Notes under the pieces: generated by a model
What the model saw: the letters and a program-made list of their open reading frames with translations, nothing else
What the model was told of the DNA's origin: nothing
The model's database searches: none
Part shown: piece by piece, positions 1 to 5,729 of the stretch
Position numbering within the stretch: the first letter of the stretch is position 1
How the letters are laid out: every line of letters begins with the position of its first letter
Program-made: the position numbers and the translations under genes
Virus record (IMG/VR): IMGVR_UViG_2695420658_000001
Strand: one strand, 5' to 3'
Source: a virus
Taxonomy: Duplodnaviria > Heunggongvirae > Uroviricota > Caudoviricetes
DNA: 5,729 bases

Positions 1-137
1 TAACAGGTGTCTGGAAATATAGGGGCAAATCCAGCGTTCATCAGCCCCCGCATTGCCGACAGGATCACAGACGGGGGGCGCAACTGGTTGTCGTTCAACT
101 GGCCCAGCTACCGTTCTTGTATCAGAGGTGTGGCTGC

Positions 138-1529
138 ATGACAACACCAGTCTGGCGTAATGATGACCTGGAAGGCGCTGTCATTGGCGCATTCTTTCTG
201 CGTGGGGCAGATCATGAAGTGATGGATATTCTGATCACACTACCGGCGGACATTTTTTCTGTACGAGCGTATCGGGATATCTACACAGGCATCTGCAGAC
301 AGGCCCGTGTTTCAGGAGTGATTGACCCCGTGCTGTTGTGTAATGAGATGCCGGAACTTGCCCCGGTGATTACTGATACCGGGCGTAAAACCTGGGTGAA
401 GTCTTCACTGGAGCACTATGTTGCAGCGTTGCGGCGCAATGCCGCACTGCGCGATGCAGAAAAAACACTGAATGAGGCGCTGCAGAAATTACGTGATGCG
501 CATACCTGTGAAGCAGCTGAAGATGCCCTGAAGGATGCGCAGAACATGATGGTCACACTGTCGACAGGAAAGGGCGTCATTCAGCCGGTACATATTGATG
601 ATGTGCTTCCGGAAGTGGTTGAGCGTGTTGAATGCCGGAATCAGGGGCTGGAGAAATCCAGGACGTTGATGACCGGTATTGATGAACTGGACGCAAAAAC
701 AGGCGGTATGGAGCCCGGAGACCTGGTATTCATTGCCGCCCGTCCTTCGATGGGGAAAACCGAACTTGCGCTGGACATCATCGACAAGGTGACTGAGCAG
801 GGGCATGGTGTGCTTCTGTTCACCATGGAGATGGCGAACATCCAGATTGGTGAACGTATGGTGTCTGCGGCTGGAGGGATGCCAGTATCACGCCTGAAAT
901 CTGTGGCTCACTTTGAAGATGAAGACTGGGCGCGTTTCTCACAAGGGGTGGGGCGGATGACCGGGCGCAATATCTGGATGGTGGACCAGGCGAACCTGAC
1001 CATTGATGAGATATGCGCAACAACGAAACACCATCTGATTAAACATCCGGAAACGGCGCTGGTGGTGGTTGATTATCTCGGGCTGATAAAAACCCGAACC
1101 ACGGGGCGTCATGACCTTGCCGTGGGTGAAATCTCAAAGGGGCTTAAAGGCCTGGCAAAATCCGGTGGTTTTCCGTTGATTGCGCTGAGCCAGCTCTCCC
1201 GCGGTGTGGAGTCCAGACCCAATAAACGTCCCATGAACTCAGACCTGAAAAATTCCGGAGAAATAGAGGCGGATGCAGACATCATTCTGATGCTTTACAG
1301 GGATGAAGTGTACAACCCGGATACACAGGCTACAGGCATAGCAGAAATTAATATCACGAAACAACGTAACGGTTCTCTGGGGACGATTTACCGGCGTTTT
1401 TATAACGGACATTTTCTGCCTGTGGACCAGGAAAGCGCACAGGTTCTTTCCACCCCAATGCGGCAGCCCCAGCCGCGCAGATACAGCAATACACGTACCG
1501 ACAGCAGTAAGATGGAGCGTTTCTTTTGA
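138..1529 (+). CDS. DnaB-family replicative DNA helicase (lambdoid / P22 gene 12-like)
   Basis: 463-aa ORF. Walker A 'AARPSMGKT', Walker B-like 'LVVVDYLGLI', and the DnaB C-terminal block 'ALSQLSRGVESRPNKRPMNSDLKNSGEIEADADIILMLYRDEVYN' are all present. ATG at 138 follows GAGG at 125-128. The frame is open back to the window edge (track start is TTG 117), so the true start is uncertain. Confidence 0.9.
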   Translation: MTTPVWRNDDLEGAVIGAFFLRGADHEVMDILITLPADIFSVRAYRDIYTGICRQARVSGVIDPVLLCNEMPELAPVITDTGRKTWVKSSLEHYVAALRRNAALRDAEKTLNEALQKLRDAHTCEAAEDALKDAQNMMVTLSTGKGVIQPVHIDDVLPEVVERVECRNQGLEKSRTLMTGIDELDAKTGGMEPGDLVFIAARPSMGKTELALDIIDKVTEQGHGVLLFTMEMANIQIGERMVSAAGGMPVSRLKSVAHFEDEDWARFSQGVGRMTGRNIWMVDQANLTIDEICATTKHHLIKHPETALVVVDYLGLIKTRTTGRHDLAVGEISKGLKGLAKSGGFPLIALSQLSRGVESRPNKRPMNSDLKNSGEIEADADIILMLYRDEVYNPDTQATGIAEINITKQRNGSLGTIYRRFYNGHFLPVDQESAQVLSTPMRQPQPRRYSNTRTDSSKMERFF

Positions 1530-1783
1530 ACAACCAGACAATGACTTTTACCTCTGAACAATTGCGTAAACACGCGCAGGAAATGTTGCGACAGGCGGAA
1601 CAACTGGAAAAAACAGGTGTAACAAAAGATGCCATTCGTCGGGATATGGTGCCAGCGCTCAGGGAACTGATGCAGGCGAAACATCGCGCACAAAAAGCGG
1701 TGGATGAGCTCGTTGATTGTGTGGCAGAGCTGGAAACCAAAGTTGGAAAGTTTGAAAAAATGGTGCAGGAGGTGCTGCGCTGA
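1526..1783 (+). CDS. hypothetical small protein (about 80-85 aa, charged, helical or coiled-coil-like)
   Basis: ORF is tightly packed between the helicase and rusA. TTG 1526 overlaps the helicase stop (TGA 1527-1529) and has GGAG at 1514-1517; the alternative start is ATG 1541. Its stop TGA 1781-1783 overlaps the rusA ATG (TGATG). No family recognised. Confidence 0.5.
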   Translation: MNNQTMTFTSEQLRKHAQEMLRQAEQLEKTGVTKDAIRRDMVPALRELMQAKHRAQKAVDELVDCVAELETKVGKFEKMVQEVLR

Positions 1784-2296
1784 TGCGCCATGAGTTTATT
1801 TTACCTTATCCGCCGACGGTGAATACTTACTGGCGACGTCGTGGCAGCACATATTTTGTATCAAAAGTTGGTGAGCGTTATCGCCGTGATGTGACGCTAA
1901 TTGTTCGCCAGCAGCGGCTGAAATTAAACCTGTCCGGAAGGCTGGCGATAAAGATTATTGCAGAGCCACCGGATAAGCGCCGTCGTGACNNNNNNNNNNN
2001 NNNNNNNNNNNNNNNNNNNNNNNNNNNNNNNNNNNNNNNNNNNNNNNNNNNNNNNNNNNNNNNNNNNNNNNNNNNNNGGAAGACTGGCGATAAAGATTAT
2101 TGCAGAGCCACCGGATAAGCGCCGTCGTGACCTGGACAATATCCTGAAAGCACCACTGGATGCGCTGACGCATGCCGGACTACTCATAGACGACGAGCAG
2201 TTTGATGAAATCAATATTGTGCGCGGTCAGCTCGTTCCTGGTGGGCGACTGGGCGTGAAGATTTATGAAATCACAGGTGATAACGATGGCGCGTGA
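1783..2296 (+). CDS. rusA: RusA Holliday-junction resolvase, interrupted by an N-run and duplicated flank
   Basis: N-terminal part '[21 protein letters not shown]...[10 protein letters not shown]' and C-terminal part '[23 protein letters not shown]...[18 protein letters not shown]' match the RusA pattern, including the DxRRRDLDN catalytic block. AGGAGG lies at 1767-1772. As given, the two halves are in different frames; removing the 88 N plus one 54-nt duplicate copy (142 nt) restores a single 120-aa ORF. Confidence 0.85.
1936..1989. repeat. 54-nt left copy of the duplication flanking N-run 1
   Basis: ggaaggctggcgataaagattattgcagagccaccggataagcgccgtcgtgac matches 2078-2131 with one mismatch (g1941 vs a2083). 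Confidence 0.9.
1990..2077. other. N-run (88 nt), unresolved sequence or scaffold gap
   Basis: Run of n flanked by a near-identical 54-nt duplication inside rusA. Confidence 0.95.
2078..2131. repeat. 54-nt right copy of the duplication flanking N-run 1
   Basis: Matches 1936-1989 at 53 of 54 positions. Confidence 0.9.
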
Positions 2297-2672
2297 TATT
2301 CAGCAGGTTATGGAACGGTGGGGGGCTTGGGCTGCAAACACTCATGAAGATGTATCCTGGGCGTCGATCGCTGCTGGTTTTAAAGGGTTAATTCCGTCGA
2401 AAGTGAAATCACGCCCTCAGTGTTCTGATGATGATGCAATGATAATTTGTGGCTGTATGGCCCGGTTGAACAAGAAAAATCAGGATTTGCACGATTTGCT
2501 GGTGGATTATTACGTAGGTGGAATGACTTTTATGAGTCTGGCACGGAAACATGGGTGTTCGGATACCTGTATTGGCAAGCGCCTGCAGAAAGCGGAAGGG
2601 GTTATTGATGGCATGTTGATGATGCTTGATATCCGGCTGGAGATGGACAGATACGTAGAACGAATTATGTAG
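2286..2672 (+). CDS. quuD: Q-family late-gene antiterminator homolog (QuuD-like)
   Basis: 128-aa ORF '[61 protein letters not shown]...' closely matches my recollection of E. coli DLP12 QuuD. Its start overlaps the rusA 3' end (ATG 2286, rusA stop 2294-2296). A promoter-terminator cassette follows immediately downstream. Confidence 0.8.
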
Positions 2673-2676
2673 GTGC

Positions 2677-2706
2677 TTGACCAGACACATTGTCCGGGGC
2701 TATATT
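2677..2706 (+). promoter_or_regulatory. candidate late promoter (PR'-like): TTGACC, 18-nt spacer, TATATT
   Basis: -35 TTGACC at 2677-2682 and -10 TATATT at 2701-2706, beginning 5 nt after the quuD-like stop. A terminator lies about 75 nt downstream, as in lambdoid PR'/tR' arrangements. Confidence 0.4.
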
Positions 2707-2713
2707 CCTCACG

Positions 2714-2731
2714 CGCCAGCAAAATCTGGCG
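2714..2731 (+). promoter_or_regulatory. stem-loop in the predicted late leader (CGCCAG-caaaat-CTGGCG)
   Basis: Perfect 6-bp inverted repeat at about +1 to +20 of the predicted transcript, with no T-run after it. Possible pause or qut-associated RNA structure. Confidence 0.3.
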
Positions 2732-2767
2732 TCGGGATTGGAACCCCGGATAGAGACCGCGACAGAC

Positions 2768-2791
2768 ACACGCCGCGAGCGTGTTTTTTAT
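2768..2791 (+). terminator. rho-independent terminator (tR'-like)
   Basis: Stem ACACGC (2768-2773), loop cgcga, stem GCGTGT (2779-2784), then TTTTTATT. It is + strand specific; the reverse-strand hairpin has no T-tail. Confidence 0.55.
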
Positions 2792-2965
2792 TGTCGTATG
2801 CACGCGCACATCTGAATTATGGTGGGGCGCATGGGGGAGCTGAAAAGCTCGCCGGTCGGTTTCCCGGTAGTTCCAACCCTGTGCGTCTCACCACCCGATG
2901 ATTGGAACCTGACGGTGTTGACAGTTTCAGGTTTGCAGTTTACATTTCCCCGCGGTGCTCAAAAC
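2770..2965. repeat. 196-bp direct repeat, copy A (identical to 4535-4730)
   Basis: Perfect identity at a constant offset of 1765 nt. Copy A ends exactly at N-run 2. Confidence 0.95.
2918..2946 (+). promoter_or_regulatory. sigma70-type promoter TTGACA, 17-nt spacer, TACATT (inside repeat copy A)
   Basis: Consensus -35 TTGACA at 2918-2923, 17-nt spacer, -10 TACATT at 2941-2946. Confidence 0.45.
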
Positions 2966-3026
2966 NNNNNNNNNNNNNNNNNNNNNNNNNNNNNNNNNNN
3001 NNNNNNNNNNNNNNNNNNNNNNNNNN
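2966..3026. other. N-run (61 nt), unresolved sequence or scaffold gap
   Basis: Run of n directly after repeat copy A. Confidence 0.95.
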
Positions 3027-3048
3027 ACTGCGCCAGCGGAGAACTACG

Positions 3049-3648
3049 ATGGCGCATATACAACTGATCAAACAAACCTCTTCCGGATTACTTCTCCCGG
3101 CGACGCCGGAGAGTTGCGATTTTCTGCATCAAATCAAAACAGGTGAGTGGATACACGCAGACTTTAAGCGTGTGCGTAACTACGCATTCCACAAGCGTTT
3201 TTTCAAACTCCTGCAACTGGGTTTCGATTACTGGACTCCGGTCGGTGGGGCGATCACGCCTCGCGAACGAAAACTGGTGTCCGGTTTCGTTGATTACCTG
3301 TGTGAATCAGTAGGCCGGGAACATACGCCAGCTCTGAGCGAAGCCGCAGAGCAATATCTGAATACAGTTGCGACACGCAGAACCCGGGATACGGCATTGC
3401 TAAAGTCGTTTGAGGCTTTTCGCGAGTGGGTAACCATTCAGGCTGGATTTTACACCGAACATTTTTATCCGGACGGTAGCCGCGGGCGTCGGGCAAAATC
3501 CATCGCTTTTGCGAATATGGACGAAACCGAGTTTCAGCAGGTTTATAAATCTGTTCTGAATGTGCTGTGGAACTGGATTCTGTTCCGTAAATTTTCCTCT
3601 CCGGAACAAGTCGAAAATGTGGCCGCGCAGCTGCTGGAGTTTGCGTAA
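3049..3648 (+). CDS. hypothetical lambdoid nin-region protein (resembles the DUF1367 family)
   Basis: 199-aa ORF with GGAG at 3038-3041 seven nt upstream of ATG 3049. Its stop TAA 3646-3648 overlaps the next gene's ATG (TAATG). The frame is open into the N-run, so the start could lie further upstream. Family assignment is from memory only. Confidence 0.65.
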   Translation: MAHIQLIKQTSSGLLLPATPESCDFLHQIKTGEWIHADFKRVRNYAFHKRFFKLLQLGFDYWTPVGGAITPRERKLVSGFVDYLCESVGREHTPALSEAAEQYLNTVATRRTRDTALLKSFEAFREWVTIQAGFYTEHFYPDGSRGRRAKSIAFANMDETEFQQVYKSVLNVLWNWILFRKFSSPEQVENVAAQLLEFA

Positions 3649-3938
3649 TGGTGGATTTACGTAAAGCGGCGCGGGGGCAGATGTGCACCGTCAGAATTCC
3701 TGGCTACTGCAATCACGATCCGGAAACGTCTGTGCTGGCGCATTACCGACTGGCGGGAACGTGCGGAACAGCGATAAAGCCACACGATATGCAGGCAGCG
3801 ATTGCCTGTAGCTCGTGCCACGATTTAATCGACGGGCGGGTAAAAACCAGCGATTACACCAAAGAAGAATTACGCCTGATGCATGCAGAAGGTGTTTTTC
3901 GCACACAAGAAATCTGGAGAAAGGAGGGATATTTATGA
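3648..3938 (+). CDS. ybcO: YbcO-like protein (DUF1364, putative nuclease of lambdoid nin regions)
   Basis: 96-aa ORF 'MVDLRKAARGQMCTVRIPGYCNHDPETSVLAHYRLAGTCGTAIKPHD...IACSSCHDLIDGR' matches the E. coli DLP12 YbcO pattern (MADLRKAARG...VRIPG.CN..PETSVLAH.RL.G.CG...KP.D...IACS.CHD.ID.R). Translationally coupled on both sides. Confidence 0.8.
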   Translation: MVDLRKAARGQMCTVRIPGYCNHDPETSVLAHYRLAGTCGTAIKPHDMQAAIACSSCHDLIDGRVKTSDYTKEELRLMHAEGVFRTQEIWRKEGYL

Positions 3939-4489
3939 TTTACCCAACGAATACAGGAAAAAGCGGAGAACACCTTCGTCTCACCACGCTGGAAAGTGTC
4001 TGGATTCAGGGAAAACTACGTATGTGGGGGCGCTGGTCGTATATTGGTGGCGGTAAGACGGGGAATATGTTTAACCTGATGTTGACCTCTAAAAAGCTGA
4101 CAAAAACGGCAATTAACGAGGCGCTCCGGAGGATGAAAAAAGCAGGTCTGAACAAGTCTGAACTTGAGGCTTTTTTGCGGGATATGATTAACGGTAAGCA
4201 AAAGAGCTGGCTGGCGCATTGTACTGATGCAGAGGCGTTATGTATTGATCGGGTCATAAGTGAGGTGCTGGCAGAGCATCCAGGATTGATTAGCGTCCTT
4301 CGGCAACGGTATGAGGGGCGGGGGATGACCAAACGCAAAATGGCTGAACTGCTGAATGATGCACACCCGAAATGGAGTTTAAGAACCTGTGAAAGACGCA
4401 TTGAGCATTGGCTAAAGGTGGCAGAATTTATTTTGTACAAACCAATGGTTATGGCTTTTGGTATAGAGAAAAAAGTTATTGCTTTTTGA
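3935..4489 (+). CDS. putative late-gene regulator, candidate second Q-like antiterminator (184 aa); function uncertain
   Basis: Strong RBS AAGGAGGG at 3921-3928 and ATGA overlap with the ybcO-like stop. N-terminal 'LRMWGRWSYIGGG' echoes the 'ERWGAWAAN' motif of the QuuD-like protein. C-terminal 'VLRQRYEGRGMTKRKMAELLNDAHPKWSLRTCERRIEHWLK' resembles a sigma region-4 / HTH segment. It is followed by the same 196-bp promoter cassette as quuD. Confidence 0.55.
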   Translation: MIYPTNTGKSGEHLRLTTLESVWIQGKLRMWGRWSYIGGGKTGNMFNLMLTSKKLTKTAINEALRRMKKAGLNKSELEAFLRDMINGKQKSWLAHCTDAEALCIDRVISEVLAEHPGLISVLRQRYEGRGMTKRKMAELLNDAHPKWSLRTCERRIEHWLKVAEFILYKPMVMAFGIEKKVIAF

Positions 4490-4534
4490 CGTAAAAACTG
4501 CTTCAATTCTTGTACGCTTCGCAAAGCTGTACCN

Positions 4535-4730
4535 ACGCCGCGAGCGTGTTTTTTATTGTCGTATGCACGCGCACATCTGAATTATGGTGGGGCGCATGGG
4601 GGAGCTGAAAAGCTCGCCGGTCGGTTTCCCGGTAGTTCCAACCCTGTGCGTCTCACCACCCGATGATTGGAACCTGACGGTGTTGACAGTTTCAGGTTTG
4701 CAGTTTACATTTCCCCGCGGTGCTCAAAAC
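4535..4730. repeat. 196-bp direct repeat, copy B (identical to 2770-2965)
   Basis: Perfect identity. A single ambiguous base n at 4534 sits immediately upstream, inside what would be the terminator stem. Confidence 0.95.
4683..4711 (+). promoter_or_regulatory. sigma70-type promoter TTGACA, 17-nt spacer, TACATT (inside repeat copy B); candidate late promoter
   Basis: -35 TTGACA at 4683-4688 and -10 TACATT at 4706-4711. A terminator-like hairpin with T7 tail begins about 30 nt downstream of the predicted start site. Confidence 0.45.
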
Positions 4731-4746
4731 ACCTCGAAAGCGGTAT

Positions 4747-4776
4747 CCACACCCGATAGCCATGTGGTTTTTTTGT
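4747..4776 (+). terminator. candidate rho-independent terminator (weak stem, strong T-tract)
   Basis: CCACA (4747-4751) pairs with TGTGG (4763-4767) across an 11-nt loop, followed by seven T (4768-4774). The stem is short, so confidence is moderate to low. Confidence 0.4.
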
Positions 4777-4917
4777 GTCCAGAATTCTTGGTTTATGACC
4801 GGGTGTGCGGCTAATACAATACCAGCAATGGAAATACGCCCGCCGACTTTCGACGGTTTTGAGCGCCCGGTCACCCTCTCAAAAGGGGTAAATCAAAATA
4901 TTCGAAAGGACATGTCT

Positions 4918-5481
4918 ATGAATCGCACGTCTATTGAAAAACTCCCGTCACTTACGCATAACCATCTTCCTGTCATGACAACAGAGCTGCTGGCTGATTT
5001 GTACGGAACAGAGCGCCAGCGTTTGACAAACAATTTCAATCGAAACAAAGAACGGTTTATAGAAGGTAAACATTTTTTCCTGATAGAAGGTGATGCGTTA
5101 CGAGAGTTGAAGAACGAAAACTCTTTAAGAGTTTCTGTGAAAATTGCCCGTAACGTTCGCTCCCTCATCCTCTGGACAGAACGTGGCGCAGCCCGTCACG
5201 CCAAAATGCTCGAAACCGATCAGGCGTGGGAAGTGTTCGAAAAACTGGAAGACTGTTATTTCAACCAGAAACAGCCACCAGCGGCACAAAACACATCTAT
5301 CGAAAATGATGGATGCGCATTACTGAGCCACTTCGATAAACACGGTCAGGTTGAGTTCACGGAAAAGGTACCCGCCGATGCGATGGTATGTACTCTGGAA
5401 CGGTTTAAATTTTATCTGGAGCAACACGGGTGGATCGTTGCCCGTAAAGAGCAACTGGTGGAGCGGTTGATGCGGTTTTAA
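4918..5481 (+). CDS. ORF6N-domain (KilA-N / Bro-N-like DNA-binding fold) protein, antirepressor-like; C-terminal about 75 aa unassigned
   Basis: 187-aa ORF. 'PVMTTELLADLYGTERQRLTNNFNRNKERFIEGKHFFLIEGDALRELK...LWTERGAARHAKMLETDQAWEV' fits the ORF6N pattern (VM..DLA.LYG.E...L...RN.ERFPEDF.F.L...E...LK...WTE.G.A...L..D.A). AAGGA at 4906-4910 precedes ATG 4918; ATG 4912 is the alternative start. Confidence 0.75.
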   Translation: MNRTSIEKLPSLTHNHLPVMTTELLADLYGTERQRLTNNFNRNKERFIEGKHFFLIEGDALRELKNENSLRVSVKIARNVRSLILWTERGAARHAKMLETDQAWEVFEKLEDCYFNQKQPPAAQNTSIENDGCALLSHFDKHGQVEFTEKVPADAMVCTLERFKFYLEQHGWIVARKEQLVERLMRF

Positions 5482-5512
5482 AAATTTTTTCCGAAAACTT
5501 TACGATCGTAAA

Positions 5513-5549
5513 NNNNNNNNNNNNNNNNNNNNNNNNNNNNNNNNNNNNN
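5513..5549. other. N-run (37 nt), unresolved sequence or scaffold gap
   Basis: Run of n. The 24 nt directly after it (5550-5573) exactly repeat 5357-5380 from inside the ORF6N gene. Confidence 0.95.
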
Positions 5550-5562
5550 TCACGGAAAAGGT

Positions 5563-5588
5563 ACCCGCCGATGAGCGGGTTTTTTTAT
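5563..5588 (+). terminator. rho-independent terminator
   Basis: Stem ACCCGC (5563-5568), loop cgatga, stem GCGGGT (5575-5580), then TTTTTTAT. Confidence 0.6.
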
Positions 5589-5636
5589 ACCTGAAAAACG
5601 GCACAGGACGTTAAACGTGCTGGTGGTCAGATGAGT

Positions 5637-5665
5637 TTGCAGATGTGATGACATATGGTTATTAT
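5637..5665 (+). promoter_or_regulatory. candidate promoter for the tRNA gene (TTGCAG, 17-nt spacer, TATTAT)
   Basis: -35 TTGCAG at 5637-5642 and -10 TATTAT at 5660-5665, placing the start site a few nt before the tRNA 5' end at 5675. Confidence 0.35.
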
Positions 5666-5674
5666 TCTGCCTCC

Positions 5675-5729
5675 GGCCCTTTAGCTCAGTTGGTCAGAGC
5701 GAGCGACTCATAATCGCCAGGTCGCTGGT
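5675..5729 (+). tRNA. ileZ: tRNA-Ile (anticodon CAU, lysidine-type, ileX/ileZ-like), 5' portion; truncated by window end
   Basis: GGCCCTTTAGCTCAGTTGGTCAGAGCGAGCGACTCATAATCGCCAGGTCGCTGGT closely parallels E. coli ileX as I recall it. D-arm AGCTCAGTTGGTCAGAGC; anticodon loop CTCATAA with CAT at 5709-5711. Met versus Ile2 cannot be fully settled from the anticodon alone. Confidence 0.8.

Follow-up and report, generated by a model that had tools for sequence, protein, structure and literature searches.

Two Q-type antiterminator genes with a shared 196-nt repeat in a Shigella sonnei prophage scaffold: very probably a mis-scaffolded single-Q locus with an isrK/C4-type antirepressor control region

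Can a single prophage carry two different Q-type late regulators in tandem, with an identical promoter cassette behind each? The question is raised by the virus record IMGVR_UViG_2695420658_000001 (Caudoviricetes), a stretch of 5,729 nucleotides (nt), here called the window, in which two candidate antiterminator genes, Q1 and Q2, each precede one copy of a 196-nt sequence (the 196-mer). An earlier note on this DNA had read the arrangement as two tandem Q-PR' modules, and left open whether these belonged to one prophage or to a chimeric scaffold that joins parts of two; given the specificity of each Q protein for its own site, two such modules in one phage would be an odd design. Our analysis indicates that the window is very probably a piece of draft Shigella sonnei sequence that was scaffolded wrongly, a foreign contig of 1.5 kb having been placed inside a locus that has a single Q gene and a single 196-mer.

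The first indication lies in the scaffold itself, which contains four runs of N (1990-2077, 2966-3026, 4534 and 5513-5549). The exact 196-nt direct repeat (2770-2965 and 4535-4730) stops at two of them: the last base of the first copy (2965) directly abuts the second run, and the first base of the second copy (4535) lies directly 3' of the single N, while the sequences immediately outside the two copies are unrelated (11/60 positions identical). The first N run is bordered on both sides by one and the same 54-nt sequence, 1936-1989 and 2078-2131, with a single mismatch at 2083 (A at 2083, G at the corresponding position 1941). The parts of the scaffold, with the evidence for each, are as follows:

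1990-2077, no strand: false scaffold gap 1, 88 N (flank overlap of 54 nt and closed-genome comparison)
1783-2296, + strand: RusA gene, artificially split and lengthened by gap 1 (Pfam)
2770-2965, + strand: first appearance of the 196-mer, the true 3' end of the left contig (repeat search, closed genomes)
2966-3026, no strand: scaffold gap 2, 61 N, an apparent false join from the Q1-prophage contig to the 1.5-kb contig, called contig B (closed genomes)
3027-4533, + strand: contig B, from one or more other prophages (BLAST against loci L004 and L007; Pfam, PHROGs)
4534, no strand: single N, an apparent false join from contig B to the right contig (closed genomes and an absent junction 34-mer)
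4535-4730, + strand: second appearance of the 196-mer, where the right contig truly begins; its bases are those of 2770-2965 and include the C4 RNA at 4580-4663 (closed genomes)
5513-5562, no strand: gap 4, 37 N (5513-5549) plus 13 nt (5550-5562) (closed-genome comparison)

The 13 nt at 5550-5562 (TCACGGAAAAGGT) are not present at this place in closed genomes and are a copy of 5357-5369 inside the downstream ORF6N gene; they look like a chimeric contig end that arose via a common 11-mer, ACCCGCCGATG.

Closed genomes supply the true order. Exact-protein look-ups placed Q1 and Q2 in thousands of assemblies, closed S. sonnei genomes among them, and the window was compared by BLAST with closed loci, using one closed-genome Q1 locus (L013) as the reference:

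window 1-1989: L013 3858-5846, 100% identity
window 2078-2965: L013 5793-6680, 1 mismatch
window 4535-5512: L013 6485-7462, 100% identity
window 5563-5729: L013 7509-7675, 100% identity

Apart from contig B, the window is colinear with closed genomes at 99.9-100% identity, with overlaps of 54 nt and 196 nt. Since the flanks of gap 1 map to overlapping positions on L013, the gap conceals the 54-nt overlap, and because it is spurious the RusA gene appears split and lengthened in the window; in closed genomes it is a single gene of 372 nt (L013 5640-6011, 123 aa). Both "copies" of the repeat map to L013 6485-6680 and are therefore one 196-nt stretch. In the closed genomes the true locus belongs to one lambdoid prophage, where the Q gene and the 196-mer each occur once; the order is DnaB - orf85 (an 85-aa open reading frame, ORF) - RusA - Q1 - isrK/a1b1 - C4 RNA - P2 (a promoter) - Xcc1-like RNA - ORF6N - tRNA cluster - holin/lysozyme/Rz. 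The 196-mer is single-copy in 8/8 closed Q1 loci and missing from 8/8 Q2 loci, so that the claim of a common cassette behind each Q fails: the element is a property of the Q1 prophage only. Where both exact alleles were located in one chromosome they lie more than 1 Mb apart (CP104423.1, Q1 at ~0.92 Mb and Q2 at ~1.99 Mb; CP180008.1, Q1 at ~0.89 Mb and Q2 at ~2.29 Mb). Readings of the exact ORF6N protein come from 37 contigs, displayed as 10 distinct places (similar places being displayed once), and in every displayed place it lies 481 nt downstream of Q1 with no DUF1133 gene, the family of Q2, in between; short-read contigs of 5.3 and 8.6 kb also assemble unbroken through RusA-Q1-ORF6N-holin.

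Contig B has a home of its own. Its genes are:

3049-3648, + strand: DUF1367/NinB (Pfam, PHROGs)
3648-3938, + strand: YbcO (Pfam, PHROGs)
3935-4489, + strand: Q2, a DUF1133 protein of 184 aa (Pfam, PHROGs)

The contig is 99.6% identical to L004 5093-6599 (6 mismatches) and 98.7% identical to the corresponding part of L007, and in closed genomes it runs on for 45 nt as GCGAGGCGAATAGC... before reaching the sequence of window 5575-5729, the leader of a tRNA cluster. All eight loci compared that have the exact Q2 allele lead in this way into the tRNA leader, without the 196-mer. Window 5575-5729 is the real right-hand neighbour of the ORF6N contig and of contig B alike, and a 412-bp stretch comprising the tRNA leader and four tRNAs is 100% identical between the Q1 and Q2 prophages. 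Closed S. sonnei genomes carry at least two copies of the DUF1367-YbcO-Q2 block (L009 and L010 in CP061367.1), and the exact Q2 protein is found mostly on contigs shorter than 2 kb (1862/3743 blocks), as expected of a repeat-bounded block. Contig B is a patchwork that matches the L004-type copy except at 3222-3315, where the L007-type copy matches; it is probably a collapsed consensus of the copies, or a gene-conversion product. Two related blocks occur in records of unexpected origin: a 5.2-kb contig (L028, JARKOR010000130.1) binned as 'Candidatus Nanosynbacter' carries a DUF1367-YbcO-DUF1133 block at 87-92% protein identity, and 'Actinobacillus phage vB_Apl-pPE4' (hit H72) encodes a homolog of Q2 at 88% protein identity. 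Because these hosts are unexpected for an enterobacterial module, mis-binning or contamination is likely for both records.

The window's own arrangement was found nowhere else. No place covering at least 80% of window 2078-5512 was found in 5426 complete E. coli genomes (0/5426), which match at 79-96% identity only, a level that speaks against a typical E. coli source, and contain the tandem in no case; an exact search for the 34-mer spanning the junction from the Q2 flank to C4 found it absent from 185,579 species-representative genomes; and a Q1-type gene within 6 kb was seen in 0/27 DUF1133 loci from other species of Enterobacteriaceae. With joins made of N runs and exact alleles more than a megabase apart, the proposal of two tandem Q-PR' modules in one prophage is not sustained, and the other possibility raised by the earlier note, a chimeric scaffold from two prophages, is the one that closed genomes bear out. 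Long reads placing the two blocks in separate prophages, which that note had named as decisive against a tandem, are what the closed S. sonnei assemblies provide, among them CP022455 (strain 2015C-3794, PacBio) and CP037997 (strain FC1653, hybrid assembly). On this reading two contigs of the Q1 locus, overlapping by 196 nt, were left unmerged, and contig B, from one or more other prophages over 1 Mb away and part of a multi-copy block there, was set between them. The scaffolder probably interleaved the contigs because the 412-bp tRNA repeat, identical in both prophages, follows the Q2 block as well as the ORF6N contig.

What, then, is the sequence that was taken for a promoter cassette? Rfam models identify four RNAs in the true spacer between Q1 and ORF6N, all above their gathering scores. 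The features of the first half of this spacer are:

2677-2706 (L013 6392-6421), + strand: isrK promoter, TTGACC-18-TATATT (promoter scan)
2700-2752, + strand: c4-a1b1 element (Rfam RF03163/RF01695 group; c4-a1b1 50.1 bits, gathering score 46.7)
2713-2789, + strand: isrK small RNA (sRNA; Rfam isrK 77.5 bits, gathering score 50)
2815-2898, + strand: C4-type antisense RNA (Rfam C4, 71 bits, gathering score 45)
2918-2946, again at 4683-4711 (L013 6633-6661), + strand: second sigma-70-like promoter, P2, TTGACA-17-TACATT (promoter scan)

The promoter-like site and intrinsic terminator found by scanning downstream of Q1 are those of the isrK unit: the promoter begins 5 nt past the Q1 stop codon, outside the 196-mer, and the terminator consists of a stem at 2768-2784 and a T-run (hairpin and T-run together 2768-2790). 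A b1 box, TTGGAAC, lies in the isrK loop at 2738-2744, the C4 RNA contains the complementary b' segment GTTCCAA at 2870-2876, and a b2 target, again TTGGAAC, follows at 2902-2908; P2 sits downstream of C4. The 196-nt cassette is accordingly not a Q/PR' unit, as had been supposed, but consists of the isrK terminator, the C4 RNA with its b2 target, P2 and the opening half of another antisense module; the terminator belongs to isrK, the isrK promoter is outside the repeat and most of what remains is C4 and its target. The exact 196-nt repeat, the hairpin with T-run and the TTGACA/TACATT promoter described earlier are all present in the window, but the duplication is unreal, both appearances being the same bases of L013. 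A further possibility is that the isrK promoter and terminator could double as the Q-dependent late promoter and terminator; we keep this as a hypothesis because the promoter core also occurs without an upstream Q gene (the L027 module at 3.3 kb).

In this first module the b1, b' and b2 boxes (b boxes only) covary three ways, as in phages P1 and P7:

window and L013: TTGGAAC / GTTCCAA / TTGGAAC
L020: TTGGCGT / ACGCCAA / TTGGCGT
L027, downstream module: TTGGTCT / AGACCAA / TTGGTCT
L027, upstream module: TTTGCAC / GTGCAAA / TTTGCAC

Several observations on related loci belong here. The isrK promoter spacer and -10 element, TCCGGGGCTATATT (window 2688-2706), is invariant in all isrK loci read (also L002, L003, L020 and L027) and is kept whatever gene lies upstream, whether Q1-type, DUF1133 or neither; candidate roles for it are an extended promoter element and a protein-binding site. 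In E. coli O157:H7 Z869 (L003, ~5480-5720) the isrK b1 box TTAGCAC pairs with the C4 b' segment GTGCTAA, but b2 is TTGGAAC, the specificity of the S. sonnei C4 seen in the window. This mismatch of b2 to its own C4 seemingly places a mosaic breakpoint between C4 and target, and judging by the boxes the L003 target may be under the control of another prophage's C4. The closed genome of Salmonella enterica strain s1 (L027) has a real duplication of the isrK-(C4)-ORF6N module, at 3294-4087 and 6589-7375; the two modules flank a single DUF1367-YbcO-DUF1133 block and differ in b-box specificity, an arrangement near to what the earlier note described except that there is only one Q gene.

These loci bear on the two alternatives to a mis-scaffolded single-Q locus. 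The scaffold might be chimeric and yet the isolate's Q2 prophage might also carry a 196-bp element after Q2, so that the repeat would be a real two-copy sequence shared by two prophages. Other DUF1133 alleles do have the isrK promoter, isrK and C4 some 25 nt downstream (L003 of E. coli O157:H7; L020/L021 of E. coli and S. flexneri; L027 of Salmonella), but the C-terminal ~35 residues of these alleles differ from those of Q2, the isrK/C4 sequences behind them share only ~79% identity with the 196-mer and have other b-box specificities, and the exact Q2 allele itself goes into the tRNA leader in all eight loci compared; we regard this alternative as very unlikely. Slightly less likely still is a true tandem in the isolate, with the DUF1367-YbcO-Q2 block inserted between two real 196-bp copies to give two Q genes and two cassettes: a real direct repeat around a unique block would be expected to break short-read contigs at the repeat edges as well, and L027 provides a precedent for duplicated isrK-antirepressor modules around one DUF1133 block, but contig B is joined through N runs only with no adjacency at the sequence level, gap 1 of the same scaffold is demonstrably false, every assembly read with these exact alleles, closed or draft, has Q1 directly before ORF6N and Q2 elsewhere, the junction is missing from the representative genomes, and the real right-hand continuation of contig B is known and different.

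Some points weigh against mis-scaffolding as the explanation or limit what can be built on it. A strain-specific rearrangement in the isolate keeps a very small probability, the comparison having been made at the level of assemblies. Contig B differs by 6-21 bases from each closed-genome copy and, being a patchwork, could be a real recombinant copy. The scaffolder's reason for the contig order is our inference, and the functions of the RNAs and proteins are predictions from sequence; neither a Q-binding element nor a pause site was found for Q1 or Q2. That the window is a mis-scaffolded single-Q locus nevertheless has a practical meaning: demonstrating the artefact averts a false report of tandem Q modules, and, in draft enterobacterial genomes generally, prophage repeats bounded by N need a check against closed genomes before they are interpreted.

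Are both proteins Q-like at all? The reference feature for the first is:

2286-2672, + strand: Q1, phage 21/QuuD-type antiterminator Q, 128 aa (PF06530, 'Phage antitermination protein Q')

Q1 matches PF06530 with 176.4 bits (E = 2e-52), phage 21 Q (PDB 6P18, 6JNX) with E = 2.9e-7 and phrog_79, 'anti-termination protein Q-like', with E = 2e-51, and its earlier assignment to the QuuD/Q21 type is thereby supported. The main family of Q2 is DUF1133 (356.7 bits, E = 2e-107), and it also scores 29.4 bits against PF06530, above the cutoff of 26, matches phage 21 Q (PDB 6P18) with E = 4e-4 in two colinear stretches covering N- and C-terminal parts, and matches phrog_753, likewise 'anti-termination protein Q-like', with E = 9e-80, besides cross-matching the PHROG family of Q1. 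A DUF1133 profile made from 15 sequences matches phage 21 Q with E = 6.4e-6, and depositors have labelled homologs of Q2 as Q, for example in phage Rac-SA53. Position agrees: Q1 closes the early-right (nin) block ahead of the lysis cassette and is the sole Q of its prophage (L013, L167-L176), and Q2 and its relatives likewise end a nin block before the lysis cassette, with holin-lysozyme-Rz following at a distance of 1-2.7 kb and Q1-type genes absent within 6 kb. By family membership both proteins are Q-like; for the 184-aa protein this rests on PF06530, phage 21 Q, PHROG and the position upstream of lysis genes, so that assignment to a non-regulatory family, the outcome that would have undone the earlier reading, does not apply. 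The neighbouring genes were also correctly listed, RusA upstream of Q1 and DUF1367 with YbcO upstream of Q2 (Pfam). From family membership and gene position we infer that Q1 and Q2 would each be the sole late antiterminator of its own prophage; their antitermination activity is known only by analogy to AntQ of Gifsy-1 (PMC4825925).

Compared with phage 21 Q and QuuD of DLP12, both of PF06530, Q1 is a strong family match and Q2/DUF1133 a weaker one that is colinear at both ends; in Q2, unlike them, about 50 additional residues separate the N-terminal W-x-x-G-x-L-x-x-W-G-x-W motif from the conserved C-terminal part, and Pfam files the protein under DUF1133. In the real context of Q2, between its stop codon and the tRNAs, the scanner found no promoter and no terminator; its only two promoter-like sites 3' of Q2 lie further on, in the tRNA leader and cluster, and a hairpin with T-run ahead of the tRNAs was seen by eye only. 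The DUF1133 alleles that precede an isrK promoter (L020, L027, L003) share a C-terminal stretch of ~35 residues unlike that of the window's Q2 (window 4380-4489). This difference points to a recombination breakpoint inside the 3' end of the Q gene, which is what would be expected if the Q C-terminus and the downstream site were inherited together.

The second half of the Q1-ORF6N spacer raises a further question, namely what lies between P2 and the antirepressor gene. Its features are:

4719-4774, + strand: start of a second antisense module (box complementarity)
4797-4880, + strand: sRNA-Xcc1-family RNA (Rfam RF02221, 77.4 bits, gathering score 53, full model covered)
4893-4910, + strand: targets of the Xcc1-like RNA, a2 TCAAAA at 4893-4898 and b2 TCGAAAG at 4902-4908 (complementarity, covariation)
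4918-5481, + strand: ORF6N-domain antirepressor, 187 aa (Pfam ORF6N, E = 9e-21; phrog_2379 'anti-repressor', E = 4e-85)

An a1 hairpin, GGTGCTCAAAACACC, occupies 4719-4733, and the 196-mer ends within it; a b1 box, TCGAAAG, follows directly at 4734-4740, and a hairpin with a T7 run at 4747-4774 was read from the sequence and is absent from the output of the terminator scanner. In the Xcc1-like RNA the complements are b' CTTTCGA (4847-4853) and a' TTTTGA (4857-4862), and its b2 target overlaps the Shine-Dalgarno sequence of ORF6N, AAGGA (4906-4910). The pairing was examined in 32 distinct Xcc1-like variants with 18 different hairpin cores, gathered from phage contigs; a 15-mer scan of viral contigs gave many chance matches, and only loci with an Xcc1-like RNA at nhmmer E < 1e-5 were kept. 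A perfect complement of at least 6 nt beside the downstream Shine-Dalgarno sequence was found in 94% of cognate against 2.9% of non-cognate pairs, and an upstream copy of the box in 97% against 18%. The rarer a' variants TGTTGA, TGTTCA, TGAGTA and TTTCTA are each matched by their own a1 and a2 boxes, and of ten diverse genes lying downstream, seven code for ORF6N, Bro-N or pRha domains. The complete P1-c4-like layout, with a1/b1 upstream, a'/b' in the RNA and a2/b2 at the Shine-Dalgarno sequence, was observed in window 4719-4910, L001, L003, L012 and L047-L166.

This covariation with the antirepressor Shine-Dalgarno sequence, across 18 variants, suggests a C4-type function for RF02221-type RNAs. 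We offer more tentatively, as a proposal whose chances fall a little short of even, that the single-copy spacer comprises two C4-type antisense "locks" in series before the antirepressor, the second being an sRNA-Xcc1-family RNA that would act as a cis-encoded, P1-c4-like repressor of translation and set immunity specificity. Judged by anatomy and covariation, the real spacer would be a control region of the antirepressor resembling both P1 immI and Gifsy-1 isrK: the promoter just past Q1 would make a short isrK RNA bearing a1/b1 decoy boxes, read-through transcripts would carry the C4 RNA, P2 would make a second module of the same design, and the Xcc1-like RNA of that module would pair with the boxes fused to the ORF6N ribosome-binding site and so block translation. 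If this is true, RF02221 gains a concrete role, the cis-encoded control of antirepressor translation, and a widespread phage RNA could be annotated; comparative evidence that sRNA-Xcc1-type RNAs behave like the P1 c4 immunity RNAs is a useful by-product of resolving the scaffold. A small ORF over C4 (4584/4596-4814, 72-76 aa) is called in some closed genomes; because it stops 104 nt before the ORF6N start, translational coupling of the orf45-anrP type seems unlikely here.

The ends of the window hold the remaining features:

138-1529, + strand: DnaB-type replicative helicase of the Q1 prophage (Pfam DnaB_C, E = 8e-73; 100% identical to L013)
5575-5729, + strand: tRNA leader and start of tRNA-Met(CAT) (Rfam, closed genomes)

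In several S. sonnei genomes (L012, L014, L017) the DnaB gene is broken at the position of window 367-370 by a segment of ~1.26 kb with transposase genes of IS3-family type, the alignment overlapping by 4 nt; the window has the uninterrupted form. The tRNA cluster of closed genomes is Met(CAT)-Arg-Thr-Gly. ARAGORN found no tRNA in the window, where the gene is cut by the window end, and the partial tRNA was picked up by Rfam.

The real locus is of an ordinary, already described kind, a Q - isrK/C4 small-RNA - antirepressor region, and can be set beside several known systems. The RNA of its second module matches the full covariance model of sRNA-Xcc1, which was described in Xanthomonas campestris as integron-borne and trans-acting, with targets that are only computationally predicted (PMC2996969); the searchable literature treats sRNA-Xcc1 as trans-acting, and one paper mentions its position ahead of an ORF6N gene but gives it no function. 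Unlike the Xanthomonas RNA, the window RNA and 30 other phage variants lie directly upstream of an apparent complementary target, and neither an integron-cassette context nor a trans-acting mode was found for the window RNA and the 32 variants examined, which are in phage DNA.

In the P1/P7 immI operon the order is a1 b1 - c4 - a2 b2 - icd - ant (Citron and Schuster 1990, as cited in 10.1101/2020.03.17.996009). The window locus is alike in that a single transcript would supply both the antisense RNA, released by cutting, and its target, that target boxes flank the RNA on both sides, that an antirepressor gene follows the downstream target and that short covarying boxes would set specificity; it differs in that the module sits behind Q in a lambdoid prophage, nothing resembling icd was found in it, and the b2 box of the first module leads into a second module rather than to an antirepressor ribosome-binding site. 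The ORF6N gene is the counterpart of AnrP in Gifsy-1 and of AntB in Stx phages (antB annotation). The antA/antB regions of the Stx phages Nil2, 2851 and P13374 have a similar C4/Xcc1-like leader and ORF6N gene at 77-80% DNA identity, whereas their position in the phage genome differs, the match in Nil2, for example, adjoining ninE.

The remaining counterpart is the Gifsy-1 locus, antQ - isrK - orf45 (STnc1160) - anrP (Hershko-Shalev et al. 2016, PMC4825925), in which IsrK turns on translation of the AnrP antirepressor, which raises antQ expression; antirepressor release there derepresses the prophage and raises Q expression (PMC4825925). There, as here, a Q-like gene is followed at once by a promoter, isrK and a terminator, then by a C4-like processed RNA and the antirepressor, with the lysis genes further on, and a Gifsy-1-like layout behind a DUF1133-type Q was recovered in the Salmonella locus L027. 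Against Gifsy-1, the Q of the window locus is of the PF06530 type, while that of Gifsy-1 is taken to be of the DUF1133 type on the evidence of L027 and not of the Gifsy-1 sequence, and in the window locus C4 is separated from the antirepressor by an extra promoter together with an Xcc1-type antisense module.

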